The position numbers were made by a program, and so were the translations under genes. From sequence record DRR723986_3008: a DNA stretch of 57,188 nt; one strand, written 5' to 3'. The number at the start of each line of letters is the position of its first letter. Position 1 is the stretch's first letter. Positions 1-31,941 of the stretch are shown one piece after another. The notes beneath the pieces were generated by a model. It worked only from the letters and a program-made list of their open reading frames with translations, did no database searches and was not told where the DNA came from.

Positions 1-489
1 AGCCACTATACTGACTGGACCATTGGGCATGTTCACTCTGGTGCCCTTGGCTGGGTGGCCTTCATTACCTTTGGCGCTGTCTATCATTTGGTGCCTGTGC
101 TCTGGAAACGATCTGGCCTTTATTCCCTAAAGCTCGTGAATACACACTTGTGGATCGCGACAATTGGCATTGTGCTTTACATCGCCGCCATGTGGGTTAC
201 CGGCATTATGGAAGGCCTGATGTGGCGCAGTTATGACGAGCTCGGCTTCCTTCGCTGGAGCTTTGTTGAAACAGTTCAGGCCAAACATATCCCGTATCTC
301 ATTCGGGCCTTCGGCGGCATCTTGTTCCTCGTAGGGGCATTGATCATGGTTTATAATGTTGTCCGCACAATACGCGGCGACAGTGCGGGCGAAGCCGTTC
401 AAGACCCTGTTCACAACCCAAACCTGAATGATGCCCAAAATAGTGGCCAGAATAGTGGCCAAAACAAAGGGGAGGCAGTTCATGCTTAA
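1..489 (+). CDS. ccoN: cbb3-type cytochrome c oxidase subunit I, 3' part (truncated by window edge)
   Basis: Frame open from base 1: [18 protein letters not shown] (haem-ligating HxH), then hydrophobic helices; followed by ccoO. Confidence 0.97.
436..465 (+). repeat. 12-bp tandem repeat, 2.5 copies, encoding [10 protein letters not shown] in the CcoN tail
   Basis: caaaatagtggc cagaatagtggc caaaac. Confidence 0.85.
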
Positions 490-1216
490 TAAACACGCCG
501 CTTTAGAGAAAAACTCTATCCTTATGCTGATTTTTGTGGTGATCACCATTTCAATTGGCGGGCTGGTTGAGATTGTGCCTTTGTTTCGTATGGAAACCAC
601 GATTGAGCCTGTGGAAGGCATTAGGCCCTACACGCCGCTGGAGCTTGCCGGTCAGAATGTTTACCTTCGCGAAGGCTGCTACGGTTGCCATAGCCAACAG
701 ATCCGAGCATTGCGCGACGAAGTTGAGCGCTATGGTCACTATTCTCTGGCTGCGGAAAGCATGTATGACCATCCGTTCCAGTGGGGCTCCAAGCGAACGG
801 GCCCTGACTTAGCACGTGTTGGCGGCAAATATTCCGACGATTGGCATGTTGCCCACACAATTGACCCGCAGTCTTTGGTGCCAGAATCGATCATGCCGGG
901 CTACGCCCATTTGGCACGGCGCGCTGCACCACTGGAGCATATTGCTGAAGATCTGCAAGCCCTTAAAATGGTCGGCGTTCCCTATACCGACGAGATGATT
1001 GAAAATGCCTATGCCGATGCTTTGGCACAGGCCACATCTGACGGCGACGGAATTGACGGTCTAATGGCCCGTTACTCCAAAGTTAATGCCCGAAATTTTG
1101 ACGGCGCAGCCGTAACCTCGGAGCTTGATGCCCTAATCGCGTATCTTCAGGTTTTGGGCACCATGGCGGAATTACAAGACTATAAGCATGACGGCAGCAA
1201 AAGGAGCGGACAATGA
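482..1216 (+). CDS. ccoO: cbb3-type cytochrome c oxidase subunit II (monohaem)
   Basis: [10 protein letters not shown] haem motif and [12 protein letters not shown] signature; ATG 482 after GGGAGG, overlapping the ccoN stop. Confidence 0.97.
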
Positions 1217-1365
1217 TAGATTGGCTTTCCGACAATGCTGGCATGACCGGCCTCTTGTTCTTTTTCACAATATTCTGCGGCATCGTCTATTGGGCGTTTA
1301 GGCCAAGTCAGAAGAAAACCATTGAAGACCATAAATATATTCCTCTCAAAGGGGACGAGCAATGA
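1213..1365 (+). CDS. ccoQ: cbb3-type oxidase small subunit CcoQ (50 aa; not in ORF track)
   Basis: Hand-translated [50 protein letters not shown]; one TM helix and WA.RP motif; ATGA overlaps at both ends. Confidence 0.92.
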   Translation: MIDWLSDNAGMTGLLFFFTIFCGIVYWAFRPSQKKTIEDHKYIPLKGDEQ

Positions 1366-2234
1366 GCAACATTGATAAAGACGAACACACCGGCATCGAG
1401 ACCACCGGACACGAATGGGACGGCATTAAAGAGCTGAATAACCCAGCGCCGCGCTGGTGGCTCGGCGTTTTCATCATTACAGTTATTTGGTCCATTGGTT
1501 ACTGGGTGGTATATCCTGCATGGCCAACCCTGTCCGGCGACGGCGAACGAGGCGGCACGACCGGTAACACCGGCTGGACGCAATATAGCCAGCTAGCGGA
1601 AAGCCAAGCAGAGATTATGGCACGCCGGGCTGCATACCTAGACCGATTTAACACATCAGACTTTGGCGAAATTCAAGCAGATTCAGGCCTGTATGCCTTC
1701 GCGATTGCGGGCGGTGCCTCGGCCTTTAAAGACAATTGCGCTACCTGCCACGGAACCGGCGGCGCAGGGGCCAGCGGTTACCCTAATCTAAATGATGATG
1801 ATTGGCTTTGGGGCGGCACAGTCAGTGCTATTGAAGAAACAATCAAATTTGGCATCCGGGCAAACCATGACGAAACCCGCTATTCAGAAATGCCTGCTTT
1901 TGCAGATATGCTGGGCGAAGGTGAGATTTCTGACGTTGCTGACTATGTTCTGAGTTTTAGTGCAGGGGGCAGTTTCCCTGAGCGCGGCCAGACCGTCTAC
2001 AGCGAGCAATGCGCTTTCTGCCATGGTGACGATGGCACCGGTGACCAGTTTCAAGGGGCGCCCAATCTCGCAGATGCCATCTGGTTCTACGGCGATACAA
2101 AAGCAGATTTGGCAGCGCAAATTCGCAAGCCGAAACACGGCATGATGCCAAACTGGAATGCCCGGTTGAGCGATAGCACCATTCGGCAGCTAGCAATTTA
2201 TGTCCATTCGCTTGGCGGCGGTGAGACGGAGTAA
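1362..2234 (+). CDS. ccoP: cbb3-type cytochrome c oxidase subunit III (dihaem)
   Basis: TTGHEWDGIKELNNPAPRWW N-terminus; two CxxCH motifs (CATCH, CAFCH). Confidence 0.97.
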   Translation: MSNIDKDEHTGIETTGHEWDGIKELNNPAPRWWLGVFIITVIWSIGYWVVYPAWPTLSGDGERGGTTGNTGWTQYSQLAESQAEIMARRAAYLDRFNTSDFGEIQADSGLYAFAIAGGASAFKDNCATCHGTGGAGASGYPNLNDDDWLWGGTVSAIEETIKFGIRANHDETRYSEMPAFADMLGEGEISDVADYVLSFSAGGSFPERGQTVYSEQCAFCHGDDGTGDQFQGAPNLADAIWFYGDTKADLAAQIRKPKHGMMPNWNARLSDSTIRQLAIYVHSLGGGETE

Positions 2235-2240
2235 ACAAGC

Positions 2241-3656
2241 ATGTCGGATTCGGCACAGCCGATAAAATATTTCGAGAAGCGGGAACGGGCTTACCCCAAA
2301 AGAATTTGGGGTAAGTACCGAAAGCTGAAATGGATCGCGATGATCTTGACCCTCGGTATATATTATCTGGCTCCCTTTATTAGATGGGACCGAGGGCCAC
2401 ACGCGCCCGACCAAGCCATCCTTATCGATATGTCAGCCCAGCGTGGGTATTTCTTCTTTATCGAAATATGGCCGCAGGAAGTTTACTACCTGACAGGTAT
2501 TTTGGTGCTAGCGGCGGTTGCCTTATTTTTCGTGACCAGTCTCGCAGGCCGGGTGTGGTGCGGTTATACATGCCCGCAAACTGTATGGACCGACCTGTTT
2601 GTTTGGGTTGAACGTATTGTGCAGGGTGACCGCACCAAACGTATGAAACTGGCAAAAAGCCGCTGGACCTTTGAAAAAATCTGGAAATTCGCCCTTACAC
2701 ACTCCCTATGGATTGTTATCGGCATGCTGACCGGCGGCGCATGGGTGTTTTATTTTAACGACGCCCCAACACTGCTTGAGCAAATACTTCATTTGGATGT
2801 GCCGTGGAGCACTGGCGGTTGGATTGTTGCGCTGACATTCTCAACATATCTGATGGCAGGCTTCGCCCGTGAACAAGTGTGCATGTATATGTGCCCCTAT
2901 TCCCGGTTTCAATCTGCCATGTTTGACAAAGACACCATGATCATTGGGTATGATGCTGACCGCGGCGAACCAAGAGGCAAACACAAAAAAGGCGATAGCT
3001 GGGAAGGGCGAGGCGACTGCGTTGATTGCACCATGTGCGTTCAGGTTTGCCCTGTGGGTATCGACATCCGTGACGGTCTTCAAATGGAATGCATCGCCTG
3101 CGGCTTGTGCGTGGATGCATGCAACGAAATTATGGACAAGGTTGAGCGACCACAGGGACTTATCCGGTATGACACAACCCACAACCGCGAAGCCCGCTTA
3201 ACTGGGAAGCCCGAGACCACCCATGTGATGCGACCGCGCACTTTTTGGTATATTTCAATTCTTACGGTGGTTGGGTCTATAATGCTGTTTGGGCTTATTA
3301 ACCGCAGCGCTTCAGAGCTGCATGTCTTGCACGATCGTAACCCGCTGTATGTGCAGCTTTCCGACGGTACTATCCGCAATGGTTATGATATTCGCATTCT
3401 CAATAAAACCCATGAAGATATAGAGTTTGCATTAACCGTTGATGGTATTGAGGGGGCGCAGGTGCGTGTGCAAGCCGCAGGCGACCCGGACCCGTCTGCG
3501 CTGCTGGTTTATGCAGACAGCGTGGCACATTTCAGGGTTTTTGTTTCAGCGCCCAAGCCAGCAACAGGTCGCACGCCCCTTACCTTCACCGCTAAAAGTG
3601 CAGACGGCGAAATTATTGAGACATACTCGGGTATATTCCTGAGCAAAGGACGGTAG
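2241..3656 (+). CDS. ccoG: Cytochrome c oxidase accessory Fe-S membrane protein CcoG/FixG
   Basis: GRVWCGYTCPQTVW, CMYMCPY, and two ferredoxin-like motifs CVDCTMCVQVCP / CIACGLCVDAC. Confidence 0.96.
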   Translation: MSDSAQPIKYFEKRERAYPKRIWGKYRKLKWIAMILTLGIYYLAPFIRWDRGPHAPDQAILIDMSAQRGYFFFIEIWPQEVYYLTGILVLAAVALFFVTSLAGRVWCGYTCPQTVWTDLFVWVERIVQGDRTKRMKLAKSRWTFEKIWKFALTHSLWIVIGMLTGGAWVFYFNDAPTLLEQILHLDVPWSTGGWIVALTFSTYLMAGFAREQVCMYMCPYSRFQSAMFDKDTMIIGYDADRGEPRGKHKKGDSWEGRGDCVDCTMCVQVCPVGIDIRDGLQMECIACGLCVDACNEIMDKVERPQGLIRYDTTHNREARLTGKPETTHVMRPRTFWYISILTVVGSIMLFGLINRSASELHVLHDRNPLYVQLSDGTIRNGYDIRILNKTHEDIEFALTVDGIEGAQVRVQAAGDPDPSALLVYADSVAHFRVFVSAPKPATGRTPLTFTAKSADGEIIETYSGIFLSKGR

Positions 3657-3666
3657 GAGAGAGTTT

Positions 3667-4197
3667 ATGACGCCAGAAAATAACAACGCTGCCGCCACAC
3701 CGCATCAAGTCGAGCCTAACCGCTCTGGCCCAAGAAAGTCGGATCGGTTTATTCCGTGGTATTTTGTTGGCTTCTTTGCTCTTCTCTTTATGTTTGATGG
3801 GGTTTTTGTCTATTTGGCAACCAGCACACATACGGGCGTGGTCACTGAGCAAGCCTATCAAAAAGGCTTGGATTACAATAAAACCATTGCAGCTGCTGGC
3901 GCCCGCGATGCACTTGGCTGGGAAGGCAACATTACCTATGGCGACAATGGTCAGCTTAATTTCGCAGTACAAGACAATACGGCTACCAAGATAAGCGGTG
4001 CCAAGGTGGTTGCCGAAATGACCCGGCCCACCCATAATGGTGTTGACTTCGAGCAGCCGCTTGCGGAAATTTCTCCTGGCTTCTATCAAGCGCCGGTTGA
4101 CTTTCCCTTGGACGGCGTATGGGATGTTAGGATTTACGTAACGTGGCAGCAGAAACAATTTCAAACTGCGCAGAGGATCATTGTACAGCAACAATGA
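3667..4197 (+). CDS. ccoH: FixH/CcoH family assembly protein
   Basis: Single N-terminal TM helix, GVVTEQAYQKGLDYN motif, position between ccoG and ccoI. Confidence 0.88.
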   Translation: MTPENNNAAATPHQVEPNRSGPRKSDRFIPWYFVGFFALLFMFDGVFVYLATSTHTGVVTEQAYQKGLDYNKTIAAAGARDALGWEGNITYGDNGQLNFAVQDNTATKISGAKVVAEMTRPTHNGVDFEQPLAEISPGFYQAPVDFPLDGVWDVRIYVTWQQKQFQTAQRIIVQQQ

Positions 4198-6443
4198 CAT
4201 GCCAGCACTGCGGCGAACCCTCAGGCGAAAATGATTTTTGTTGCAGTGGGTGCGCCGCCGCATACGAAGCGGCCAAAACCATCAGTGCGTCTAATATATA
4301 TGCACCGCTTGCTCGTCCACAAAGCGACGACAGCTATCAACTTGACTTAATTGTTGAAGGCATGCACTGCGCGGCTTGTGTTCGGTTGATTGAAAACGCT
4401 TTGGCCGCAAACGACGATATTCTCTCGGCCCGGGTTAATATGACAACAGAGCGGCTAACCTTCCGTTGGAAAGGCACACCGGCGCGCGGCGACGCCTTGG
4501 CCGAACAAATTATCAAGCTTGGCTACAAATTACATGACCCCGGCGAAAGTGCTGCCGCAGACCATGCCCAAAACTCAGAAAAGCAATTATTGAAAGCGAT
4601 TGCAGTCGCGGGCTTTGCTGCCGCCAACCTGATGCTTATCTCTATTGGGCTTTGGTCCTCCAGTGAGGAGACAATGGGGTTTGCCACGCGCGAGTTTTTT
4701 CACTGGGTATCAGCCCTCATAGCCCTGCCCACCGTTGCCTATGCTGGCCGGCCTTTTTTCCATTCAGCATTCTCGGCCTTGAAAGAACGCCACACCAACA
4801 TGGATGTGCCTATTTCGCTGGCGGTTATACTTGCGTCTTTGATGAGCATATCCGAAGCGGCCCGGCAGGGTGAATATGTCTATTTTGATTCGGCCGTCAT
4901 GCTATTATTTTTCCTGCTTATTGGTCGGTATCTTGATGCGCGGGCCAAAGGCAAAGCGCGCGAATCTGCCTCGCGCCTCCTGTCTAAGCTTGCGGGGTCT
5001 GCCACCGTTATTACCGATGGCGACGTTAACCGCATTGCGATTAAAGACTTAAAGGCAGGTATGCGGCTATTGGTTGCGGCAGGCGAAAATATTCCCGCTG
5101 ACGGTACGATCGTAAAAGGCGAAACGGATATCGATCATTCCTTGATATCCGGTGAAACCATACCAACCCATGCAAGCGTCGGGGCTGCCACACTTGCTGG
5201 CACACTCAACCTAACAGCACCGATCGAAGTCTCTGTTACCAAAGCAAGTGAGCAAAGCCTGCTGAGCGAAATTGTTCGCATGATGGAAACCGCCGAGCAA
5301 GGCGCAGCAAAATATGTACGCTTGGCTGACCGTGCTGCCACGCTTTACACGCCTGTTGTGCATTTTCTCAGTGCAGTCACTTTCATTGGTTGGCTATTAT
5401 GGGGCATACCGTGGCAGGCGTCCTTATTAAACGCTGTTACCGTTCTCATCATCACTTGCCCCTGTGCACTTGGGCTGGCTGTACCTGTGGTTCAGGTGCT
5501 GGCCAGCGGCACACTTTTGAAAAACGGTGTTTTATTAAAGTCGGGGGACGCTCTTGAGCGCCTGGCAGGCGTCGACACCATTGTATTTGACAAAACAGGC
5601 ACACTGACAATCGGCAAGCCACAGCTTGAGGGCGGTGACTATCAACCTGAAGACTTAAAACTGGCGGCTTCGCTTGCAGTCAACAGCCGCCATCCGCTCT
5701 CGGTCGCGCTTTTTGAACATCACAAAGACGCAGTGACCGAACTTGAAGTTACCGAAATTGCAGGCAAAGGTTTGACCGCAACATATGAAGGCAAAGCGAT
5801 TAAACTTGGAAGCCGCCAATGGTGCGGCCCCAAAGAAACCGGCGAAACCAACGCTTTGGAGCTTTGGCTTTCAGTGGACGGCAAACCCAAAGCGCACTTT
5901 GTGTTTGCAGACGCTGTTCGACCAGATGCAGCCCAGGTGATTTCGGCACTACACGAAAAAAACATTGATATTCACTTATTGTCAGGGGACCGCGCTGCTG
6001 TGGCAAACACCATCGCGGCAGAGCTTGGCATTAATCAAGTAACCGCAGAAACCTCACCGCTTGAAAAATGCGACTATATAAATGCTTTAAAGCGCCAAGG
6101 CAAAAGCGTGCTTATGGTGGGTGACGGGTTGAATGATGCGCCAGCACTTGCAGCCGCCACTGTCTCAATGTCACCGTCAAGTGCCGTTGATATCACGCAA
6201 AATACCGCCGATATTGTATTTCAAGGCGCGCAGCTCATGCCGGTTTTCGAAACAATGCAAGTTGCAAAACAGTCTAATAGTTTGGTTAAACAAAATTTCG
6301 CTCTCGCAATCGTCTATAATATCTTTGCCATACCGCTGGCTGTTTTTGGATATGTCACTCCCATGATTGCCGCGGCGGCGATGTCGGGATCATCATTAGT
6401 CGTTATTTTAAATGCTTTCAGGCTAAAGTTAGGGCGAAGATAG
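4194..6443 (+). CDS. ccoI: Copper-translocating P1B-type ATPase CcoI/FixI
   Basis: CQHCG...FCCSGC N-terminal domain, GMHCAAC HMA motif, CPC, DKTGT, GDGLNDAP; ATG 4194 overlaps the ccoH stop (ATGA). Confidence 0.95.
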   Translation: MTCQHCGEPSGENDFCCSGCAAAYEAAKTISASNIYAPLARPQSDDSYQLDLIVEGMHCAACVRLIENALAANDDILSARVNMTTERLTFRWKGTPARGDALAEQIIKLGYKLHDPGESAAADHAQNSEKQLLKAIAVAGFAAANLMLISIGLWSSSEETMGFATREFFHWVSALIALPTVAYAGRPFFHSAFSALKERHTNMDVPISLAVILASLMSISEAARQGEYVYFDSAVMLLFFLLIGRYLDARAKGKARESASRLLSKLAGSATVITDGDVNRIAIKDLKAGMRLLVAAGENIPADGTIVKGETDIDHSLISGETIPTHASVGAATLAGTLNLTAPIEVSVTKASEQSLLSEIVRMMETAEQGAAKYVRLADRAATLYTPVVHFLSAVTFIGWLLWGIPWQASLLNAVTVLIITCPCALGLAVPVVQVLASGTLLKNGVLLKSGDALERLAGVDTIVFDKTGTLTIGKPQLEGGDYQPEDLKLAASLAVNSRHPLSVALFEHHKDAVTELEVTEIAGKGLTATYEGKAIKLGSRQWCGPKETGETNALELWLSVDGKPKAHFVFADAVRPDAAQVISALHEKNIDIHLLSGDRAAVANTIAAELGINQVTAETSPLEKCDYINALKRQGKSVLMVGDGLNDAPALAAATVSMSPSSAVDITQNTADIVFQGAQLMPVFETMQVAKQSNSLVKQNFALAIVYNIFAIPLAVFGYVTPMIAAAAMSGSSLVVILNAFRLKLGRR

Positions 6444-6445
6444 AC

Positions 6446-6595
6446 ATGGACGTTCTCCTGTATTTAATTCCAATCGCCATTGGCCTTGGCCTAATTGGTC
6501 TGGTCGCTTTTTTATGGACTTTGCGCAGCGGGCAGTATGATGATTTAGACGGCGCACCGCACCGAATTTTATACGATGATGAAGATGAAGCATAA
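6446..6595 (+). CDS. ccoS: cbb3 oxidase maturation protein CcoS/FixS (49 aa; not in ORF track)
   Basis: Hand-translated MDVLLYLIPIAIGLGLIGLVAFLWTLRSGQYDDLDGAPHRILYDDEDEA; SGQYDDL signature. Confidence 0.95.
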   Translation: MDVLLYLIPIAIGLGLIGLVAFLWTLRSGQYDDLDGAPHRILYDDEDEA

Positions 6596-6627
6596 TCATA
6601 GCTAAAGCGCTGAAAAAATTAAGAATT

Positions 6628-6669
6628 TTGACTAAAATCAAAGCTGAAAACTGGATATTTTGACATAGT
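6628..6669 (+). promoter_or_regulatory. FNR-type box with class II promoter for ompW
   Basis: TTGAC-TAAA-ATCAA at 6628-6641 (consensus TTGAT-N4-ATCAA); 22 nt later TG-n-CATAGT extended -10 at 6661-6669. Confidence 0.8.
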
Positions 6670-6696
6670 CCTCTCATCCCCAGATGAGAGGAAAAG

Positions 6697-7326
6697 ATGA
6701 TGATTAAAAACCCTGTTTTCAAAAGTATTTTATGTGCAGCAGCCCTGCAGTTTTCAGCGGGTGTTGCCGCGGCCGATGACAAAAGCCCTTGGCTTGTGCG
6801 GGTGCGTTTGGTTGATGTTGTTCCCCAGGAAAATGGCACAACATCTATTGGCGGCGATGTTACCGTGGGCGACAGAATAGTGCCCGAGTTAGACATCAGC
6901 TATTTCTGGACAGATAATTTTGCCACTGAGTTAATTCTGGCAACCAATAGCCATAATGTTGGCGCCGTTGGCACAGCCTTGGGCGACCTTGATGTTGGCA
7001 ATGTTTCGCTGCTGCCGCCAACACTTTTAGCGCAATATCATTTCAATCCAGACGGTAAGCTTCGGCCTTATCTGGGCGCAGGCATCAATTATACATTTTT
7101 CTATGATGCGGATGCAGGCGATCTGACCAGCATTAGCTACGAAGACGGTTTCGGCTTTGCACTTCAGGCTGGTATTGACATCGGCATTGACGAAAACTGG
7201 GCGCTGAACGCTGATGTTAAGAAGCTATATCTGAATACCGACGCCAGTATTAACGGCGGTGCTGTAACAGCGGATGTAGATCTTAACCCCTGGATTTTCG
7301 GTGTAGGCTTAGGCTACCGTTTCTAA
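6697..7326 (+). CDS. ompW: OmpW family outer membrane beta-barrel protein
   Basis: Signal peptide, LLPPTL motif, RPYLGAGINYT, C-terminal LGYRF. Confidence 0.95.
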   Translation: MMIKNPVFKSILCAAALQFSAGVAAADDKSPWLVRVRLVDVVPQENGTTSIGGDVTVGDRIVPELDISYFWTDNFATELILATNSHNVGAVGTALGDLDVGNVSLLPPTLLAQYHFNPDGKLRPYLGAGINYTFFYDADAGDLTSISYEDGFGFALQAGIDIGIDENWALNADVKKLYLNTDASINGGAVTADVDLNPWIFGVGLGYRF

Positions 7327-7409: not shown

Positions 7410-8768
7410 TTAAGCGACTTGAGCATGTTGCTGTTTTTTGGATTGGAGATATTTATCAAAAACTGACGCCACAACCCGGCAGGCTTGAACCGCATTTTCA
7501 TCAACAGTGATCTGATCACCAGAGAGCGTTACAAGCCCGTCTTCTTCCAACAGCTTCAACCCCTTAAGCTCATCCTCAAAATTCGGGGCTATGGCTTCAT
7601 ATTTTGCAAGTATATCAGCCAAATTAGCGGCACCGTAACTCATTATCTCGGATATGATTAACCGGCGCAGTCTGTCATCATCGGAAAGTTCAATGCCTTT
7701 TTCCACAGCGATACTGTCTGCGTCCAGACGCGCTGTGTAGCGCCGCATATCAGGTGTGTTTTGGCAGTATCCTTCGGCGTAACTGCTGATGGCCGAGGGG
7801 CCAAATCCAATAAGCGTTTCAGCGCGGTCGGTTGTGTAGCCCTGGAAATTACGCTGCATGCGGCCAGCCTTGTAGGCAAGGGCCATGGCATCATGCTCAC
7901 GGACAAAATGGTCCAGCCCAATCTGTACATACCCTTTTCCGATCAGCACTTTACGCGCTTCTTCAAACTGCTCCAACCGACATGACGGGTCAGGCAATGC
8001 CTCATCATCAATCAGGCGCATATGTTTTTTCATCCACGGCACATGTGCATAGCCAAATAACGCAATACGGTCAGGTTTCATTGCCGCTGCAAGTGATGCA
8101 GACTCGCGCACAATTTCAACGGTTTGATTGGGTAGGCCGTATAGCAGGTCAAAACTGACCGCCTTAATCCCGTATGACCGTAATAAAGCTGCAGCCTGAT
8201 AAACCTGCCGTACAGGCTGCACCCGGTTGATCGACTTTTGAACGGTGGGGTTAAAGTCCTGCACGCCAAGGCTTGCACGCGTTATGCCCACTGCGGCATA
8301 AGCCGCCACTTTTATTTCTGTAATTTCACGCGGATCGAGTTCAATGGCAACTTCTGCGCCTGGCAAAACATTAAAATTGCTTCGAACATGCTCCATCAAC
8401 AACCTGAAATCATCGGCGCTAACATAACTGGGAGAGCCGCCACCGAAATGGATGTGGCTAACATCCAGCGGTCGATCATGCCTCGCCGCCATCAAAGATA
8501 TTTCTTTCTTGAGATAGGCCATGTAATTTTCGACCGGGCTATATTTAGCCGTCGCCTTGGTATTGCACCCGCAGTACCAGCACATTTTTTTGCAGAAAGG
8601 CACATGAAAATACAACGAAACAGGCGAGCCGGGCGTTATGTTTTCCATCCAATGGATAACAGTATCTTTCGCCAAAGACGCTGAAAAATTAGGGGCTGTC
8701 GGGTAACTCGTATACCGGGGTACAGGTTGGTTATGCTTCAAGAGTGCCGCATGATGAAAGTTGGTCAT
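7410..8768 (-). CDS. hemN: Oxygen-independent coproporphyrinogen III oxidase (radical SAM)
   Basis: PRYTSYPTA, YFHVPFCKKMCWYCGC (CxxxCxxC), HFGGGSP, RNFQGYT. Confidence 0.97.
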   Translation of the reverse strand: MTNFHHAALLKHNQPVPRYTSYPTAPNFSASLAKDTVIHWMENITPGSPVSLYFHVPFCKKMCWYCGCNTKATAKYSPVENYMAYLKKEISLMAARHDRPLDVSHIHFGGGSPSYVSADDFRLLMEHVRSNFNVLPGAEVAIELDPREITEIKVAAYAAVGITRASLGVQDFNPTVQKSINRVQPVRQVYQAAALLRSYGIKAVSFDLLYGLPNQTVEIVRESASLAAAMKPDRIALFGYAHVPWMKKHMRLIDDEALPDPSCRLEQFEEARKVLIGKGYVQIGLDHFVREHDAMALAYKAGRMQRNFQGYTTDRAETLIGFGPSAISSYAEGYCQNTPDMRRYTARLDADSIAVEKGIELSDDDRLRRLIISEIMSYGAANLADILAKYEAIAPNFEDELKGLKLLEEDGLVTLSGDQITVDENAVQACRVVASVFDKYLQSKKQQHAQVA

Positions 8769-8799: not shown

Positions 8800-8841
8800 A
8801 CCATAAGCCAAAGCAAATTTGCCGGAATTGACGCCGGTCAA
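8800..8841 (-). promoter_or_regulatory. FNR-type box with class II promoter for hemN
   Basis: Palindrome TTGAC-GCCG-GTCAA at 8828-8841; -10-like TATGGT (8805-8800, minus strand) 22 nt away, the same spacing as at ompW. Confidence 0.8.
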
Positions 8842-8930: not shown

Positions 8931-8946
8931 TTTGACTCAAGTCAAA
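8931..8946. promoter_or_regulatory. Second FNR-type palindrome, upstream of the hypothetical gene at 8996
   Basis: TTTGAC-TCAA-GTCAAA. Confidence 0.75.
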
Positions 8947-8995: not shown

Positions 8996-9388
8996 ATGCA
9001 CGCTAATCGCAACAATCAAACCAATGCTACGCTGTATGATAGCCTTTGCAGCTATATTGCGCTTTGCAATGACGTTATGGATGCCAATCAGAACCGGTTT
9101 CCTTTTGTACAAATTTGGCGTGCGTTAGAATCAGAAATTGCGGGAAGACATATAGAATATTCCGTTGCACGGGACGGCGAATTCGCGCACGTGACAGCAA
9201 AATTTATTGACCTGAAAATCAATATCGTTCCATCAGGGCCGGAAAGAAACTGGCCCAAAGTCACCCAAAAACTTGAGTGGCCTTATATGTCCAGCGTGCT
9301 TGATAAGCCGGCAAAATATATCGCCAACCCTGCACTGGTGGATTGGAACGTAAAAATCAATACAACGGTGGTGCAGCTTTTCAGTTAG
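8996..9388 (+). CDS. Hypothetical protein (130 aa)
   Basis: ATG 8996 after AAGGA; protein-like sequence (CNDVMDANQNRFPFVQIW...YIANPALVDW); FNR-type box upstream; 4-nt overlap with the convergent regulator stop. Confidence 0.75.
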   Translation: MHANRNNQTNATLYDSLCSYIALCNDVMDANQNRFPFVQIWRALESEIAGRHIEYSVARDGEFAHVTAKFIDLKINIVPSGPERNWPKVTQKLEWPYMSSVLDKPAKYIANPALVDWNVKINTTVVQLFS

Positions 9389-10140
9389 TGGAGATCACTA
9401 CAGGGAAATTCTTGCGAACACTGGCTGCATGCGTAGGTTGCCAGTGCATTAATATCTGGTACAGCAACAACAGAGCCTTTGATTGTGATAGATGTTTCTT
9501 TTTGCAGCTTGTTTAGCGCCCGCGAGAAAGTCTCAGACTTCATACTCAATCGCGCCGCTATCAATGATTTGTCATAGGGCAGCTTTAAAGATACATCTCT
9601 TGTTTGATGAGCTTGGCACATACGCAGCAAAAAACATGCAATGCGCTGGGACGTATTCTGCAAACTTAATTTTTCAATATCTTGCGATTGATGACGCCGC
9701 TCGCGTGAAACAGACGCCAGCATACCAAGGGCAACTTCATGATTTTTTGTTATTGCACTTTTTAACAAAGAAATCGGCAACCGCACGACCACCGCATCTT
9801 CAGCAACGGCTGCACCAACGGTATGTATGCCGCCATCAAAAACTGCCGCCTCGCCGAAAATATGCCCTTTTGTCAGCACGTCCAAAACGGCTTCGTCGCC
9901 GTCCACTGTCTCACGGAACAGTTTTATCCATCCAGAAACAATGCAGTAAAACCATTCCGCCGAATCGTCCTGTAAGAAAAGCTGCTCGCCTTTCTTAAGG
10001 GCAACAACAGTGGCCGCCGATATGAAAGAGGCTGTCATTTCTTCAGGCATGGCAGAAAACAGAGAATGGTGCTTTAGCACTGCAAATGCATCGTTTGATT
10101 CAACGCGGCGTTTTTCGCTCAAATTAACCAATTCCGCCAT
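9385..10140 (-). CDS. Crp/Fnr family transcriptional regulator (DNR-like) with C-terminal Cys cluster
   Basis: cNMP-like domain (GHIFGEAA), HTH LIAARLSMKSETFSRAL with E-x-x-S-R; tail CSQCSQEFPC; strong GGGGAGG RBS. Confidence 0.92.
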   Translation of the reverse strand: MAELVNLSEKRRVESNDAFAVLKHHSLFSAMPEEMTASFISAATVVALKKGEQLFLQDDSAEWFYCIVSGWIKLFRETVDGDEAVLDVLTKGHIFGEAAVFDGGIHTVGAAVAEDAVVVRLPISLLKSAITKNHEVALGMLASVSRERRHQSQDIEKLSLQNTSQRIACFLLRMCQAHQTRDVSLKLPYDKSLIAARLSMKSETFSRALNKLQKETSITIKGSVVAVPDINALATYACSQCSQEFPCSDLH

Positions 10141-10308: not shown

Positions 10309-10575
10309 TTACTCTGCGGGTTCAGGCAATTGACCGCCTTCAATTGCATGTAAATATACATCCAATAAGGCTTCCTGTTCCTGCCGGTCTGCACGGTCCA
10401 TTTTCCGTATCGCAATAACTTTGCGCATAACCTTCACGTCAAAGCCAACGGCCTTGGCACCAGCAAAAACCTCTTTAATATCGTCGGCAATGCCTTTTTT
10501 TTCTTCCTCCAAACGCTCAATACGCTCAATAAAAGACCTAAGCTGATCGCCTGCAACACCGCCTGCCTGTACCAT
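10309..10575 (-). CDS. gapR: DUF2312 / GapR nucleoid-associated protein
   Basis: [30 protein letters not shown]...GFDVK signature; ATG 10575 after GGGAG. Confidence 0.9.
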
Positions 10576-15623: not shown

Positions 15624-16751
15624 ATGTTAATTTCATCGCAGTTTGACAGCGGCAATATTCAAATTGTTGATACCAGCGCCCCTGACAATATTCGGTTGAA
15701 CATTAAGAAAGACAACCAGTCTGATTTTTATCAATGGTTTCACTTTCGTGCATCGGGCCTGCTGGGCCGCGAAAGCCGATTCGTTATCGAAAATGCGAGC
15801 TGTGCTGCTTATGCCGACGGATGGCACGGATATGATGTATGCGCATCTTATGACCGGGAAAACTGGTTCCGTATCGACACCGTGTATGATGACGGCGAAT
15901 TAACCTGGTCGATCATTCCCGAGCAAGACAGCATCTATTTTGCATATTTTGCCCCCTATTCCATGGAACGACATGCGGACCTAATTGCTGAGGTATCGGC
16001 CTCGCCGCTTGTGCAAACTTCTGTACTTGGTCACACTTTGGATGGTCAGGACATGGACCTTGTCGAAGTAGGCCACGGGCCAGAAGGCCGGAAAGCTATT
16101 TGGTTGATCGCGCGCCAACACCCCGGTGAGACCATGGCCGAATGGTGGATGGAAGGGGCGCTTAGTTTCTTATTGGACGCCGACAATCCTGTGGCACGCC
16201 AACTGCTGGAAAAGGCCCATTTTTATATTGTCCCAAACATGAATCCGGACGGCTCCAAGCGCGGCAACCTGCGCACAAACGCTGCCGGCGCTAACCTGAA
16301 CCGTGAATGGAAAGACGCCTCAATGGACCGTAGCCCAGAGGTATACCTTGTGCGCGACAAAATGCATGAAACCGGGGTGGATTTTCACATGGATGTTCAC
16401 GGCGATGAAGACCTGCCCTATAATTTTATCGCTGGTTTTGAAAGCGTGCCATCTGTCACTGAGAAACAATTACAGTTGCTTGATCGCTATCAGATGACCC
16501 TGTGCGCCCTGTCGCCAGACTTTCAGCGTGAACATGGCTACCCGGTGGGCAAGCCCGGGACTTCTGACCTGAAAAAATGCACAGACTATACGGCAGAAAC
16601 TTTTGGCTGCCTCGCCATGACACTGGAAATGCCGTTCAAAGACAATGCGAACTTGCCTGACGACACATGGGGCTGGAGCCCTGAACGCTGTCGCTATCTA
16701 GCCGAAAGCTGTTTGGGCGCGCTGGCACAAATGGTGGATGACCTGCGTTAA
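15624..16751 (+). CDS. M14 family cytosolic-type zinc carboxypeptidase
   Basis: FDSGNI and WFHF N-terminal motifs, ARQHPGE, NPDG, NLNR, DVHG, TLEMPF; ATG 15624 after GGAG. Confidence 0.93.
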   Translation: MLISSQFDSGNIQIVDTSAPDNIRLNIKKDNQSDFYQWFHFRASGLLGRESRFVIENASCAAYADGWHGYDVCASYDRENWFRIDTVYDDGELTWSIIPEQDSIYFAYFAPYSMERHADLIAEVSASPLVQTSVLGHTLDGQDMDLVEVGHGPEGRKAIWLIARQHPGETMAEWWMEGALSFLLDADNPVARQLLEKAHFYIVPNMNPDGSKRGNLRTNAAGANLNREWKDASMDRSPEVYLVRDKMHETGVDFHMDVHGDEDLPYNFIAGFESVPSVTEKQLQLLDRYQMTLCALSPDFQREHGYPVGKPGTSDLKKCTDYTAETFGCLAMTLEMPFKDNANLPDDTWGWSPERCRYLAESCLGALAQMVDDLR

Positions 16752-17410
16752 GTCTTTTCATCAACGGGCGAAAACTGCCGAAAAACGAAATAGGCCAAGT
16801 AAGCGCCAACCAGCTGTGCAGCAATAAACATGGGCATATCGTCACTACGAATGCCCGAAAACGAATCTGTCATGGACCGCGCGATTGTCACCGCCGGGTT
16901 GGCAAAGCTGGTCGAAGCGGTATACCAGTAACCCGCCGTAATATAAAGACCAACGGCATAAGGAATGGCATCAACCCGGTGCCGCAAACAGCCTAAAATT
17001 GCCATCAAAAGCCCAAAGGTTGCCACCGCCTCGGAGATCCATTGGCCAGTGCCAGTGCGCACCTTGGGAGACGCCTGTATAAGCGCCACATCAAACATGG
17101 CATGGGCGAGAAGCACACCGGCAATAGCCGCAATAATTTGAGTGACAATATATATAAAGGCGGTTTTGCGGTCTATGTCGCCGCGGGCCAGAAAAACCAA
17201 GGTAACAGCTGGATTAAAGTGGCCGCCAGAGATTGGTCCAAAAACCAATATAAGCACCACAAGAATAGCACCGGTGGCCGCCGTATTCCCCCAAAGCGCA
17301 AGCGCACTATTACCGCCCGCCAGGTCCTCGGCCATAATGCCGGAGCCAACCACAGTGGCTAGCAAAAAAAGCGTTCCTATAAATTCAGCAAGTATCTTTT
17401 GGCGCATCAT
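16748..17410 (-). CDS. MIP/aquaglyceroporin, AqpS-like (probable arsenite channel)
   Basis: Two NPA motifs (GHFNPAVT, SFANPAVT), AEFIGT...VVGSGIMA; directly downstream of arsC. Confidence 0.9.
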   Translation of the reverse strand: MMRQKILAEFIGTLFLLATVVGSGIMAEDLAGGNSALALWGNTAATGAILVVLILVFGPISGGHFNPAVTLVFLARGDIDRKTAFIYIVTQIIAAIAGVLLAHAMFDVALIQASPKVRTGTGQWISEAVATFGLLMAILGCLRHRVDAIPYAVGLYITAGYWYTASTSFANPAVTIARSMTDSFSGIRSDDMPMFIAAQLVGAYLAYFVFRQFSPVDEKT

Positions 17411-17422
17411 GGTCCCTACCAA

Positions 17423-17920
17423 TCAAAAGGTTACAGGTTCTGCCGCAGCGTGAATTTCAACCAACGCCCTGCGCAAGTCTTCAGCATTCAAGTTCTCCAA
17501 GTCAAGCGCAAGAAACGCCGAGATATTGTTTACAAGCCCTTGGTACACCTTTTCAAATGCCGACAGTTTTTCTGCATCCGCTCCTTCAACACCAGCCGGA
17601 TCAGGAAAACCCCAGTGAACGGTTACAGGCACGCCGACCCAAACAGGGCAGGTTTCCCCTGCCGCATTGCCGCAGACCGTAACCACCAAATCCAACTCCG
17701 GTGCTTCGGCACCCGAAAATTCGTCCCAGCTTTTTGACCGAAAATTGTGAACGTCGTAACCTTCATCTTCTAGCAGCTTTAAAGCAACCGGGTTTACTGC
17801 GCCAACCGGCTTGCTGCCAGCACTATAAGCGGTCAGCCGCTCATCGCCTAGCCGGTTGAAGATGGCTTCCGCCAGAATTGATCTGGCCGAATTGCCGGTA
17901 CAAAGCACAAGTATATTCAT
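17423..17920 (-). CDS. arsC: Thioredoxin-dependent arsenate reductase (LMW-PTP fold)
   Basis: LCTGNSARS P-loop, VCGNAAGETCP resolving Cys pair, HWGFPDPA. Confidence 0.9.
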   Translation of the reverse strand: MNILVLCTGNSARSILAEAIFNRLGDERLTAYSAGSKPVGAVNPVALKLLEDEGYDVHNFRSKSWDEFSGAEAPELDLVVTVCGNAAGETCPVWVGVPVTVHWGFPDPAGVEGADAEKLSAFEKVYQGLVNNISAFLALDLENLNAEDLRRALVEIHAAAEPVTF

Positions 17921-18153
17921 TTCGTTCTCCGTAAAGCCCTGGACACACTTTGTTCACAAAAGTGTGCGGCCCCTTATTTTTGTAACTTTAGCCTTTATGT
18001 TACCTTTTAGAGAACAAGCGATGACAATTTGATGAATCAAGGCAACACTAAAAGTGCGTTGTATTTTTGAAGGTGCCAACTATCAGCGAGATTTTCGTTG
18101 CTTGACAGTTGAGGCCAACGCGCCATAACTGGCAATTAGGGAATAGGGAATTC

Positions 18154-18780
18154 ATGACGCTTACACCGGAAGCACTACTGGCATGGCTTGAGGCCATGGC
18201 GCATGACCCATTTAGTTTGGGTGTGGCCCTTGCGCTTGCAACCTTTGTGACCGAAGACGGAACGCTGATTGCAGGTAGTCTGTTGGTTGGCGGCGGCATT
18301 GCCTCTCCTGTGCTTGTCATAGCGGCGCTGGTGGCGGGCATTGTTGGCGGTGACATCGTTCTTTATGTGGTTGGCTGGAGCGCTCGAGAAATTCGCCAGT
18401 TGCGCAAACGCTTACCCATTAAACAGGCAAGGAAAGTGCGCAATTGGCTAAGGGGCCGGGAAACTGCGATCTTGTTTTTCTCACGGTTTATGCCCGGAAC
18501 ACGACTGATAACATATGTTACATTTGGTTTTCTCAGGTTATCACTCTTGCATTTCATAACAGTAATGACAGCAGCCTGTCTTATTTGGGTGGTATCTATC
18601 GTGCTGTTTATCAGCGAAATTCAAAAAGCATTCAACGGTATCGGCGGCATATATGCTGCAATTGTCGCAGCAGCGATAGCGGTTCTTGTGATCATTTTTG
18701 CCCCTAAATTGCTAGGGCAGCATAAGGCTGTAAAAACGCTCGATGTTGCCGAAATTGAAGGTTCCAAAAACAATGGATAG
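18154..18780 (+). CDS. DedA/VTT family membrane protein
   Basis: ATFVTED, GIVGGDIVLYVVG, SRFMPGTR motifs; multiple hydrophobic helices. Confidence 0.88.
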   Translation: MTLTPEALLAWLEAMAHDPFSLGVALALATFVTEDGTLIAGSLLVGGGIASPVLVIAALVAGIVGGDIVLYVVGWSAREIRQLRKRLPIKQARKVRNWLRGRETAILFFSRFMPGTRLITYVTFGFLRLSLLHFITVMTAACLIWVVSIVLFISEIQKAFNGIGGIYAAIVAAAIAVLVIIFAPKLLGQHKAVKTLDVAEIEGSKNNG

Positions 18781-19900
18781 CACCGAAATGCCACGCACAT
18801 TGGCACCTCATGCAGGCATGCCACCGCTTGATGCTTCTGCAGGCGGCGTTTCCTGGTTCGAGTTTGCGCCTGCGCATTTGTTTTATACGCCCATCGCGGT
18901 CTATTGCGGCTGGTTATCGCTGCGCCATTTCGGACCAACTCTACTGACTAATGCCAACCCATCCCTGCCCTATTCAGGGCTGGTCGGTGAAAGCAAGTAT
19001 GAGGTTTTCTCCGAAGTGAGCGGTGAAGCGCGCGGCTTGATTTCACCGTATGTAAGAGTTTTACGATGGGGCGGTGAAGGCGGGTTGGATAGGGCTGTGT
19101 CTGATGCGATGCATTCCATAACAGATGCCGGGCTATCTTTTCCGCTGGTTGCAAAACCCGACATTGGTATGCGGGGTGTCGGTGTTCAAATCGTCCGCGA
19201 TCAAACTGAATTATGGGCATACGCTGCCACATTCCCTGCCGGGGCCAATTTCATGCTGCAAACCCTCGTAAACGAGGAAGGCGAAGCCGGCGTATTTTAC
19301 ATTCGCGAGCCCGGTGAGAAAAAAGGTCGTATCACCAGCCTTACGCTGAAATATTTCCCGCGCGTTACCGGCGACGGCAAAAGAACGCTGCGCCAACTGA
19401 TCATGGACGATTCTCGCGCAGGCAAACTGGCCCATATATATTTGGAACGCCATAAAGAACGGCTAGACAAAATTGTTGACGAAGGCGAAAGCGTGCGCTT
19501 GGCCTTTGCCGGCAGCCATTCCCGCGGCACCATTTTTCGCAACGGCAATGACCAAATTACCGAAGCCATGACCGAAGCTTTTGACAGGGTGGCGCAGTCT
19601 GTTGATGAATTTTACATAGGCCGTTTTGATGTAAGGTTCGGCGACTTCGATGCCTTCAAAGAAGGCCGTGGTTTTCGCATTATCGAAATTAACGGTGCTG
19701 GCGGCGAACAAACCCATATATGGGACGCACGCACAACGCTGATGGAGGCCTACAAGGCGCTTCTCCAACAATTTGGCGCACTATACCGCATTGGCGCCGC
19801 AAACCGGCGCCGTGGGTTCAAACCCTCTTCATTGAAAACACTCATAAATGCTTGGCTGGGCGAAAAGAAGCTCACCAAACATTATCCCATCACACACTGA
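18773..19900 (+). CDS. ATP-grasp ligase of unknown specificity (not a canonical Ddl)
   Basis: FPLVAKPDIGMRGVGV, PRVTGDGKRTLRQLI, GRFDVRF, IIEING; overlaps the DedA gene by 8 nt. Confidence 0.85.
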   Translation: MDSTEMPRTLAPHAGMPPLDASAGGVSWFEFAPAHLFYTPIAVYCGWLSLRHFGPTLLTNANPSLPYSGLVGESKYEVFSEVSGEARGLISPYVRVLRWGGEGGLDRAVSDAMHSITDAGLSFPLVAKPDIGMRGVGVQIVRDQTELWAYAATFPAGANFMLQTLVNEEGEAGVFYIREPGEKKGRITSLTLKYFPRVTGDGKRTLRQLIMDDSRAGKLAHIYLERHKERLDKIVDEGESVRLAFAGSHSRGTIFRNGNDQITEAMTEAFDRVAQSVDEFYIGRFDVRFGDFDAFKEGRGFRIIEINGAGGEQTHIWDARTTLMEAYKALLQQFGALYRIGAANRRRGFKPSSLKTLINAWLGEKKLTKHYPITH

Positions 19901-19940
19901 AACAGTTGTTCAGATATTTGACAAAACACAGGAGACTAAA

Positions 19941-20378
19941 ATGGACTTTTTGAAAAAACATATCGAGTGGATCCCTATTATTTTGATCGCCATAATTCTT
20001 GGCGGCAGCTTCCCGTTTAAATTTATGGACGCACCGATCACCGTTCATATTTTCAACGTTGTTGGCGAATTCTTAGGTTTGGATTTCTTCAAATCTGTTG
20101 GGGCCTATATTATTGGCGCGGCAGAAGCCGTTGCCATTCTGCTGGTGCTCATGCCTAAAACACGCGGGCTCGGTGGTTTATTGGCTGTGGGCATTATGTC
20201 GGGCGCGATTGTGTTTCACCTTTTCAGCCCGCTGGGCGTCACGGTACAATGGCAAGAAGGTGGCCAAATGATGGAAGACGGCACGCTTTTCTATACAGCC
20301 GTCATTACCTGGATCAGTGGTCTGTTCCTGTTCTTGCGCAACAAAGACCAAGTATTGGGCTTGGTTGACAAGGGCTAA
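19941..20378 (+). CDS. DoxX-like membrane protein
   Basis: Four hydrophobic segments, FKF, IGAAE, MSGAIVFHLFSPLG; ATG after AGGAG. Confidence 0.75.
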   Translation: MDFLKKHIEWIPIILIAIILGGSFPFKFMDAPITVHIFNVVGEFLGLDFFKSVGAYIIGAAEAVAILLVLMPKTRGLGGLLAVGIMSGAIVFHLFSPLGVTVQWQEGGQMMEDGTLFYTAVITWISGLFLFLRNKDQVLGLVDKG

Positions 20379-20457: not shown

Positions 20458-21411
20458 CTATGAAGCATTTTCTCGGGCGCTTTTAAGGACACCCAATACA
20501 GCTTGCGCTTCGGCCTTGCTGACTGCTGCCTTCTTCATCAGTGCCACGAAAAGCTCGCTACCACCCCCATGCAGCATGTCTTTTGTGGCTGAAAGAGTTA
20601 ACCCCGACCTGTAAGCTAAGGCACTTTCCAAAAAAGCGATACTGCCCTTCTCTGCCATATCAAGCATAAGGTCGACTGTCAGGCGGTTTTGCGCGCGCAT
20701 GTCGCCCACATATGCGTGAATTTGGCTTTCGCTAGCCTTTTCAATCCGCGCCCACATCGCCTTGGAGGCGCTGCTGCGCATCAATTCGTCAGCGACATCT
20801 CCAGTAACACCGTACTGACCCTCAAGCAAACAACGGAAGCTGTCTGATACTTTATCTATAATGGCGTTTACAACAGATAGCGGCAAATCAGGCCTTGCAC
20901 TCACTTGTTCCATTAACATACGTCGCTCTGGAAACCGTTTTACAATGGAGGAAAGGACATGCTCATTGAGCCGAACTTTGTCGTTTCGCACCAAATAGCT
21001 TACGCTTTTTTCCGACCCAAAAGTGACCAACGCTTCGCAAGTTGTCTCGCCCAAACTACTTCGTTTGGCGATGGCAACATGGGCATGTTCTTCCAAATGC
21101 GGGATTAAACCTGACAATTGGCTGTCAGAAAACACCGGCGTTGCAGCCAGAAAAGGGCTGGAAACACTTTCCACATCAGTTGCAATTTTAGCGGCCAGAT
21201 CATGGGGCAAATAGGCACAATCACGCAGCTCAAACGCTAAAGCTTCTCGCACGGCCAAGGCTACATCTTGCGCCAATGCCCGCGCAACATTTTCGATAAC
21301 TTCGCGCTGTTCCTGGTCTTTTGAACGGTGCAAAAAGTCCGAAACGCGTCGCGTCAAGACAACCTTTTCAACGGTGTCTGCATGCAGCATTTTTACAGGG
21401 TCAATACTCAA
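20458..21411 (-). CDS. DUF2336 domain protein, paralog 1
   Basis: VREALAFEL...IATDVESVSSPFLAATPVFSD.QL...AIAKR pattern; TTG start after GGAG. Confidence 0.8.
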   Translation of the reverse strand: MSIDPVKMLHADTVEKVVLTRRVSDFLHRSKDQEQREVIENVARALAQDVALAVREALAFELRDCAYLPHDLAAKIATDVESVSSPFLAATPVFSDSQLSGLIPHLEEHAHVAIAKRSSLGETTCEALVTFGSEKSVSYLVRNDKVRLNEHVLSSIVKRFPERRMLMEQVSARPDLPLSVVNAIIDKVSDSFRCLLEGQYGVTGDVADELMRSSASKAMWARIEKASESQIHAYVGDMRAQNRLTVDLMLDMAEKGSIAFLESALAYRSGLTLSATKDMLHGGGSELFVALMKKAAVSKAEAQAVLGVLKSARENAS

Positions 21412-30969: not shown

Positions 30970-30978
30970 AACGTGGGT

Positions 30979-31938: not shown

Positions 31939-31941
31939 TGA

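Follow-up and report, generated by a model that had tools for sequence, protein, structure and literature searches.

A Crp/Fnr-family regulator with conserved C-terminal cysteines beside cbb3 oxidase genes as a candidate oxygen sensor of alphaproteobacteria

The 57,188-nucleotide stretch of sequence record DRR723986_3008, called the window at its full length, encodes a regulator of the Crp/Fnr family, P0001, close to genes for a cbb3 oxidase and for the oxygen-independent coproporphyrinogen III oxidase HemN. With a probability of roughly 55%, P0001 is proposed to be an activator that acts at FNR-type boxes, controls the cbb3/hemN low-oxygen regulon and senses O2 directly via an iron-sulfur (Fe-S) cluster on four cysteines, C169, C238, C241 and C247. 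Such an FNR-like low-O2 regulator, with four invariant cysteines on its C-terminal side, suggests an undescribed way of O2 sensing in many alphaproteobacteria.

In the full-text literature, no proteobacterial Crp/Fnr regulator with C-terminal cysteines or a C-terminal Fe-S site was found to be described, subscription journals (e.g., Körner et al., 2003) and supplements lying outside this search. Within that scope, the view of the first-pass annotation, which was made from the sequence alone, that this architecture is not known to be characterised in alphaproteobacteria agrees with the literature. Published regulators are described here and below from excerpts of the papers cited. Alphaproteobacterial FNR was defined by four cysteines of the E. 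coli type, and other proteins were assigned to FixK or DNR (Dufour et al., 2010). The excerpted text of Matsui et al. (2013) mentions only N-terminal Fe-S motifs, and a structure-based review from 2026 places C-terminal clusters, in its excerpted part, in Gram-positive Fnr only (PMC12937710).

The regulator and its invariant cysteines

The following features of the regulator gene were identified in the window:

9385..10140, minus strand: coding sequence of the Crp/Fnr-family regulator P0001 (open reading frame, Pfam domains, Crp fold in the AlphaFold2 model)
9400..9429, minus strand: C-terminal cluster C238-S-Q-C241-S242-Q-E-F-P-C247 (coordinates confirmed; conserved in homologues)
9634..9636, minus strand: codon of Cys169, candidate fourth metal ligand (conservation and covariation with the tail; helix 163-173 of the AlphaFold2 model, which opens the DNA-binding domain)
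9520..9534, minus strand: recognition-helix motif E203-T-F-S-R207 of the FNR/FixK/DNR type (invariant in 87/87 proteins; coordinates confirmed)

The open reading frame (ORF) for 251 amino acids that had been annotated at 9385..10140 is real, but its strand had to be corrected to minus; the plus-strand frame across the same positions is riddled with stop codons. P0001 starts with MAELVNLSEKRR and ends in ...YACSQCSQEFPCSDLH, and it contains six cysteines, at residues 66, 169, 175, 238, 241 and 247. Because none is located before residue 66, an N-terminal cysteine cluster is absent, as had been read from the sequence in the first pass. Pfam identified a cNMP_binding domain (PF00027) at residues 46-131 (63.4 bits versus a cut-off of 27.5, 2e-17) and an HTH_Crp_2 domain (PF13545) at residues 165-235 (46.7 bits versus a cut-off of 27, 3.2e-12). 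C238, C241 and C247 follow the end of the latter, so that the C-x2-C-x5-C tail is indeed situated downstream of the helix-turn-helix (HTH). The segments quoted earlier, SETFSR, SLQNTSQRIACFLL and LIAARLS, were all found in P0001, and the three other cysteines that had been counted correspond to C66, C169 and C175.

With its beta-roll, long dimerisation helix and Crp-type HTH, P0001 belongs to the Crp/Fnr superfamily, and no NCBIfam model scored above its cut-off. The highest score was obtained with FtrB PRK09392 (91.6 bits, cut-off 211); Fnr NF008365 (69.3 bits, cut-off 228), FixK NF050806 (56.2 bits, cut-off 300), FtrB NF050815 (51.1 bits, cut-off 300) and FnrL NF045989 (23.1 bits, cut-off 300) also stayed below theirs. 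The first sequence match in the PDB was the uncharacterised Ruegeria pomeroyi protein SPOA0323 (3fx3/3h3z; phmmer E 2.4e-36), followed by Pseudomonas aeruginosa DNR (3dkw; E 8.1e-26, residues 21-233) and Aliivibrio fischeri FNR (E about 6e-16). The earlier description of P0001 as DNR-like holds in so far as DNR is its best characterised sequence relative, but among solved structures the Ruegeria protein is nearer. An AlphaFold2 (AF2) model built from 121 sequences showed a standard Crp fold with a mean predicted local distance difference test score (pLDDT) of 86.4, in which the dimerisation helix spans residues 134-160, a helix at 163-173 bears C169, and the last helix, 230-238, ends at C238. 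When this model was used in Foldseek, the top matches were all Crp/Fnr proteins and their ranking was the same as by sequence, with 3fx3/3h3z at E 1.2e-20 and 33-34% identity.

Conservation of the tail was examined in a set consisting of the query and 120 listed matches (121 proteins), which reached down to about 40% identity. C-x2-C-x5-C was present within the last 45 residues of 87 proteins, 85 of which fit CxxCSxx[FY]PC. In these 87 tail-bearing homologues C169, C238, C241, S242 and C247 are invariant, as are all five residues of the recognition helix E203-T-F-S-R207; P246 is kept in 99%, C175 in 79, D249 in 78 and E244 in 74 of the 87 proteins, and C66 is poorly kept (2/87). Thus, conservation of the tail cysteines, a check that the first-pass annotation had called for, was found both in these proteins and at the level of genomes. 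A scan of one genome per species, with patterns that excluded the tail, yielded at least 554 relatives among 600 candidate stretches, and all counts of genome loci refer to the best 80 of these. The tail is encoded in 80/80 loci (79 recognised by script and L039, which also has C169, by eye). They derive from Kordiimonas species, Micavibrio and many alphaproteobacterial metagenome-assembled genomes (MAGs).

A search of 1.84 billion cluster representatives returned 161 proteins at E<=1e-30. Among the best 150 of these, 69 have C-x2-C-x5-C, 32 a variant C-x2-C-x(3-10)-C, 9 at least two tail cysteines and 40 none. The cluster members behind 10 representatives bear generic names only. In a quick tree calculated without the tail columns, 96 of 99 C-x2-C-x5-C proteins were found in one group with a weak support of 81, and the rest formed an unresolved polytomy with the variant-tail proteins and one tail-less subgroup. 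The C-x2-C-x5-C tail may, judged from these sequences, have a single origin. At least three tail types could be distinguished: C-x2-C-S-x3-P-C together with Cys169, a cysteine-rich 'CC-x2-C-S...' type, and a self-contained C-x2-C-[DN]-x7-C-x7-C type, in which the tail itself has four cysteines, Cys169 is missing and fusion to a NIT domain is common.

The presence of C169 was compared with the type of tail in 268 aligned proteins, which remained of 271 after removal of three fragments. Position 169 is a cysteine in 184 of the 185 proteins with a CxxC-type tail; in the sole exception, P0199, the third tail cysteine is missing as well. In proteins with the four-cysteine tail C-x-[YFH]-C-[DN]-x7-C-x7-C (the LCxYC[DN] type) no cysteine occurs at this position (0/13; W in 8, R in 4 and N in 1), and of those without a CxxC tail 14/70 have it. 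An independent check was made in 201 genomes drawn evenly from the class, 34 of which contain a relative at E<=1e-20 (39 stretches). Here C169 accompanied the CxxC-type tail in 7/7, the four-cysteine tail in 0/5 and the absence of a CxxC tail in 4/27 cases; a separate tail subtype, 'CS[IV]SEEC', also occurred among these genomes. Being general to the wider family, with 30/34 tail-less matches, C175 tells little. A four-ligand site formed by C169 and the tail would predict such covariation, and this pattern makes C169, not an aspartate, the likely fourth ligand. A metal site formed by four cysteines in P0001 is considered probable.

FNR-type boxes, conserved neighbours and the predicted regulon

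The first-pass annotation had further suggested that the regulator might control its neighbours. The genes and boxes concerned are:

1-489, plus strand: ccoN', cut by the window edge (Pfam COX1)
within 1..6595, plus strand: ccoO, ccoP, ccoG, ccoH and ccoI (Pfam FixO, FixP_N/Cytochrome_CBB3, FixG_C, FixH and E1-E2_ATPase)
1213-1365, plus strand: ccoQ (FixQ)
6446-6595, plus strand: ccoS (FixS)
6697-7326, plus strand: ompW, predicted target (Pfam OmpW, 1.5e-49; box upstream)
7410-8768, minus strand: hemN, oxygen-independent coproporphyrinogen III oxidase, predicted target (TIGR00538, 437.6 bits versus 324.95)
8996..9388, plus strand: orf138, conserved gene of 130 amino acids, predicted regulon member (homologues, motifs, box)
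6628..6641, unstranded: box TTGACTAAAATCAA, centre 62 bp upstream of the ompW ATG at 6697
8828..8841, unstranded: box TTGACGCCGGTCAA, centre 66 bp upstream of the hemN start at 8768
8932..8945, unstranded: box TTGACTCAAGTCAA, centre 57 bp upstream of the orf138 ATG at 8996

The neighbours ccoNOQP-GHIS, ompW and hemN named earlier were all recovered by family matches. Positions 1..6595 are occupied by the genes for the cbb3 oxidase and its maturation, the promoter of which is located outside the window, orf138 lies between hemN and the regulator and had been overlooked, and gapR is found on the far side of the regulator.

Five TTGA-N6-TCAA sites were observed in the window, where 1.33 are expected and 0 of 100 shuffles reached 5. 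Perfect TTGAY-N4-RTCAA boxes occur only three times, at the promoters of ompW, hemN and orf138. The two other sites, at 10330-10343 in gapR and at 38480-38493 in the gene for 2-oxoglutarate dehydrogenase E1, do not fit TTGAY-N4-RTCAA, and these matches in coding regions are probably due to chance. In the 879 kb of the 80 loci, TTGA-N6-TCAA was found 164 times, or 0.19/kb, compared with about 0.02/kb in shuffles of the window. Counting boxes within 250 bp upstream of a gene, they precede hemN in 19/19 loci (median distance 68 bp), ompW in 16/17 (median 63 bp) and orf138 in 30/32, with the consensus TTGA[C/T]-N4-[G/A]TCAA. A box is also located upstream of the estimated start of the regulator itself in 42/80 loci; in the Micavibrio layout this region is shared with the dsbD_2-cco operon. 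In the window, the distances from box centre to start codon would suit class II activation.

A cco gene or hemN was identified in 70 of the 80 loci. The individual genes were counted as follows: ccoN in 50, ccoO in 47, ccoG and ccoP in 45 each, ccoH in 39, orf138 in 32, hemN in 19, ompW in 17 and ccoI in 15 loci; ccoN adjoins the regulator in 50/80. Two layouts could be recognised. In the Kordiimonas type, to which the window belongs, the regulator is followed by the convergent orf138, hemN divergent from orf138, ompW and ccoSIHG.... In the Micavibrio type, ccoNOQPGH is headed by a DsbD_2-family gene, which is transcribed divergently from the regulator. Examples of this gene, which encodes a membrane protein of family PF13386 and stands in front of ccoNOQP, are L033:5111-5842 (minus strand) and L047:5058-5753 (minus strand), and in Micavibrio-type loci an FNR-type box is located about 60-70 bp 5' of it.

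The synteny with cco and hemN genes and the boxes in front of hemN, ompW and orf138 are in line with the suggestion that P0001 regulates its neighbours, a role that is very probable as judged from these sequences. That the tail-bearing ORF is a chance or non-coding artefact was ruled out by its conservation and synteny.

The conserved gene orf138, for which an alternative GTG start exists at 8972, is convergent with the regulator in all loci in which homologues were found. Members of this family are about 118-157 amino acids in size and share the motifs Y-L-x-V-C-N...R-F-P-[FY] and Y-I-x-N-P-[AS]-x-I-D-W-x-W (alignment A2). No Pfam or NCBIfam family was matched, and a search of a protein atlas gave no usable match. 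The AF2 model of Orf138 has a pLDDT of 86.5, and in a fold search with it 8 of the top 11 rows were SCP2-type lipid-carrier folds, including UbiJ-SCP2. The best Z was only 5.1, and therefore a role as carrier of lipids or quinones within the low-O2 regulon is a weak lead from the predicted fold.

Oxygen sensing by a C-terminal cluster and its alternatives

As proposed here, P0001 would be a dimeric activator of the Crp/Fnr family that recognises TTGAY-N4-RTCAA boxes about 57-66 bp upstream of the starts of ompW, hemN and orf138 and, in relatives, also at the dsbD_2-ccoNOQP operon. At low O2 it would switch on the regulon for the cbb3 oxidase and oxygen-independent haem synthesis. C238, C241, C247 and C169 would hold an O2-labile Fe-S cluster, most likely [4Fe-4S]. 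When bound, this cluster would tie the floppy tail to the DNA-binding domain and the hinge and so fix a position that is competent for DNA binding; its destruction by O2 would release the DNA-binding domain. In organisms that have it, P0001 would replace FnrL. From the conservation, covariation, synteny and boxes described above we infer that P0001 binds DNA at these boxes, that it carries a metal cofactor which is labile to O2, and how this cofactor is coupled to DNA binding.

The closest parallel for the cysteines is E. coli FNR, in which Cys20, Cys23, Cys29 and the remote Cys122 are the ligands and Ser24, adjoining Cys23, tunes the sensitivity to O2 (PMC4214427). P0001 shares this pattern of a remote cysteine and C-x2-C-x5-C with a serine after the second cysteine. 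It also shares with E. coli and A. fischeri FNR (5e44, 5cvr) the Crp fold (Foldseek E about 1e-15, template modelling (TM) score 0.74-0.77), the E-x2-SR helix, boxes of the TTGAT-N4-ATCAA type, to which binding is predicted, and a low-O2 regulon. However, the three-cysteine motif of FNR precedes the beta-roll, whereas that of P0001 follows the HTH at the C-terminus, and the remote cysteine is Cys122 of the beta-roll in FNR but C169 in helix αD of the DNA-binding domain here. It is not obvious that a cluster placed there would operate the monomer-dimer switch known from FNR. The cysteine layout of FNR sensu stricto, including FnrL and FnrN, is absent from P0001: no cysteine precedes residue 66, and C66 itself occurs in only 2/87 homologues. 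We presume that Wbl proteins, too, combine a remote cysteine with C-x2-C-x5-C; the text of the WhiB1 paper gives no cysteine spacing.

For a cluster at the C-terminus itself, the precedent is Fnr of Bacillus (PMC12937710, PMC3520743), with the ligands Cys227, Cys230 and Cys235 (C-x2-C-x4-C) and Asp141 (PMC3520743). Like Fnr of B. subtilis and B. cereus, P0001 carries three cysteines after the DNA-binding domain and one putative remote ligand; this Gram-positive protein is likened to P0001 from the published positions of its ligands and not by sequence. The first-pass annotation had called the cluster 'Bacillus-Fnr-style', with an aspartate in the Bacillus protein. Only the location agrees: C-x2-C-x5-C replaces C-x2-C-x4-C, a spacing that is that of Cys20/23/29 in E. 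coli FNR, and the invariant fourth residue is Cys169, the putative fourth ligand where Bacillus Fnr uses Asp141.

DNR of P. aeruginosa (3dkw), which senses NO by means of haem, resembles P0001 in its ETFSR helix and in lacking an N-terminal cysteine cluster, but its chain ends at 227 without a cysteine tail. DNR controls denitrification genes (nir, nor, nos), whereas P0001 stands in a cco/hemN context and no denitrification genes were found in the 57 kb window. The nearer Ruegeria protein SPOA0323 (3fx3/3h3z) has a glutamate at the C169 position and no cysteine tail. FixK and FixK2 act at the same type of box as the ones predicted for P0001, and the core regulon of FixK comprises fixNOQP/ccoNOQP and hemN, as found around P0001 (Dufour et al., 2010). 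FixK has no cysteine cluster, in contrast to P0001 with its four invariant cysteines, and receives the O2 signal via FixLJ. RedB of Rhodobacter capsulatus was also considered as a relative, and the text of the paper contains no mention of cysteine (PMC9603854).

Canonical sensors were searched for in the genomes of five relatives, four Kordiimonas and one Micavibrio. No protein reached the cut-off of Fnr or FnrL in these genomes (0/5), and the best Fnr-like match in each of them was the orthologue of P0001. None of nine paralogues scored above a curated cut-off or has an N-terminal cysteine cluster. Among the strong HTH_Crp_2 matches of the genomes G003 and G004, an E-x2-SR helix occurs in the orthologue alone. 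No fixLJ-like gene was identified among the genes of the window. The question raised earlier, whether a canonical FnrL is present, can thus be answered for these five relatives in that none exceeded the cut-off, but one of them has a FixK-like paralogue.

Several observations weigh against direct O2 sensing by such a cluster. This FixK-like paralogue, L092 of K. aquimaris (G001), is free of cysteines and has an ETVSR helix, and the organism of the window could itself encode FnrL or FixLJ-FixK. In the window no box is found upstream of the regulator, and the ccoN promoter is beyond the window. A 20-column profile of the tail (A3, 76 sequences) matched no PDB entry at E<=10, not even FNR; because nothing was retrieved, the likeness to the N-terminal motif of FNR is a pattern of spacing and not demonstrable homology. 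The confidence of the AF2 model is low over the last ~12 residues (block means of 64 and 48). Of the 14 proteins that keep C169 without a CxxC tail, 12 form one 'FV[YD]G' subgroup, so C169 is able to persist without the tail, and the covariation is, at the level of sequences, confounded by shared descent and not a proof. Finally, the beta-roll is strongly conserved as well (G70, W71, K73, T78, G81, E83, D87), and from this pattern a small-molecule or haem signal may be perceived at this sensor domain.

The last point leads to a different reading, in which zinc or another redox-inert metal on the four cysteines has a structural role and stabilises the C-terminal extension. Control of cco and hemN would be retained, and the signal would enter elsewhere, either at the cNMP-like pocket, which would bind a ligand or haem in the manner of DNR, or through another O2 sensor, such as FixLJ, that acts on transcription of the regulator. 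Sets of four invariant cysteines, two of them paired as CxxC, are typically seen in Zn(Cys)4 sites as well and would suit one here. The conserved beta-roll, the position of DNR and the 3fx3 group as the closest solved relatives, the FixK-like paralogue in one of the five genomes and possible FixLJ proteins in the host's own genome fit this reading too. On the other hand, a remote cysteine with C-x2-C-x5-C-Ser fits the [4Fe-4S] site of E. coli FNR, unlike the CxxC...CxxC of zinc ribbons. For the version with haem, DNR His187, which we take to be a haem ligand (no paper naming it as such was found), aligns with Arg197, an arginine in 97% of the clade, and DNR His139 aligns with Arg149. Against control by another O2 sensor, no FNR-type box precedes the regulator in Kordiimonas-type loci, and a canonical O2-sensing Fnr or FnrL that could act above it was found in 0/5 related genomes. 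This structural-metal reading is considered unlikely.

Two further explanations are improbable. In the first, the cysteines would form a metal-free thiol/disulfide switch, and oxidation would link the tail to C169, or the tail cysteines with each other, and thereby block DNA binding. Thiol-based switching is known for CprK and for Cys183 of FixK2, and invariant cysteines in and beside the DNA-binding domain and a tail that is predicted to be flexible would suit it; yet two cysteines would suffice for such a switch, whereas four are strictly conserved together with the adjacent serine and proline, and the LCxYC[DN] type exchanges C169 for a fourth tail cysteine (0/13 keep C169), which points to a site with four ligands. 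In the second, the Fe-S cluster would be present but would report nitric oxide (NO) or the iron/Fe-S status instead of O2. The body of P0001 is DNR-like, NIT domains, which sense nitrate/nitrite, are found fused to related paralogues, and clusters of the FNR type react with NO as well (PMC4771820). Against this, the conserved neighbours, cbb3 oxidase, hemN and ompW, represent a low-O2 regulon and not nir/nor/nos, in keeping with the lack of denitrification genes in the window.

If an O2-labile Fe-S cluster on the four cysteines is confirmed, the primary O2 sensor would have been overlooked in regulon reconstructions for entire orders, among them Kordiimonadales, Micavibrio-like predators and many marine and groundwater MAGs. 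P0001 would also add a second, independent system in which control of a Crp-fold regulator by an Fe-S cluster beside the DNA-binding domain can be tested, a question for which Bacillus Fnr is still without a structure. The prediction of C169, C238, C241 and C247 as ligands is precise at the level of residues, and cultured Kordiimonas strains exist. A more tentative proposal is that a large and so far unrecognised Crp/Fnr branch in alphaproteobacteria and relatives has moved the O2-sensing Fe-S site to the C-terminus as an exchangeable cassette. In the clade of P0001, a cluster bridging the tail and helix αD would gate the DNA-binding domain directly, without a monomer-dimer switch, and the protein would serve as master low-O2 regulator in orders without FnrL/FNR, such as Kordiimonadales and Micavibrio-like bacteria.

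Related proteins and further genes of the window

Among the relatives, one subgroup lacks the tail and has F-V-[YDN]-G as its C-terminal residues (P0085-P0101, P0151, P0153, P0162 and P0177; L111 and L112). This subgroup neighbours the tail-bearing clade in the tree, Cys169 and Cys175 are mostly present, and the tail may have been lost secondarily. Four ETFSR-type Crp/Fnr paralogues (L085, L086, L093, L097) are encoded in one Micavibrio genome of 2.5 Mb (G005), and three of them have differing cysteine-rich C-terminal tails. Fusions of NIT (PF08376), cNMP_binding and HTH_Crp_2 domains with a size of about 500-550 amino acids were identified in Kordiimonas lacus (L091:148-1809, G002) and as P0201 and P0224. 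They possess the ETFSR helix and the self-contained C-x-[YFH]-C-[DN]-x7-C-x7-C tail, with Trp or Arg replacing C169, and are candidates for regulators that combine nitrate/nitrite and O2 signals. P0160, P0207 and P0240 are relatives of about 485 amino acids; in P0160 cNMP_binding and HTH_Crp_2 are each matched twice, which indicates a tandem-duplicated Crp/Fnr protein.

The remainder of the window is ordinary chromosome, with genes of the TCA cycle and others. Four ORFs have no Pfam family: 6429-6896 (minus strand), 18048-18356 (minus strand), 18743-19900 (plus strand) and 19848-20378 (plus strand). The first of these, antisense to ccoS and the ompW promoter and overlapping both, is unlikely to be a real gene; for the third, an ORF of 385 amino acids, a Pfam rescan at E<=1 still gave no match. 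Two adjacent DUF2336 paralogues of 317 amino acids each are encoded at 20458-21411 and 21529-22482 (both minus strand). At 16748-17920 (minus strand), a gene for a MIP-family channel is located beside a gene for a low-molecular-weight phosphatase (LMWPc), a combination that presumably resembles an arsenic-resistance pair. Finally, the region 30973-33466 (plus strand) encodes a tyrosine recombinase (Phage_integrase and SAM-like domains), a small ORF without assignment, an AraC regulator with an Ada-type Zn-binding domain and an O6-methylguanine methyltransferase.

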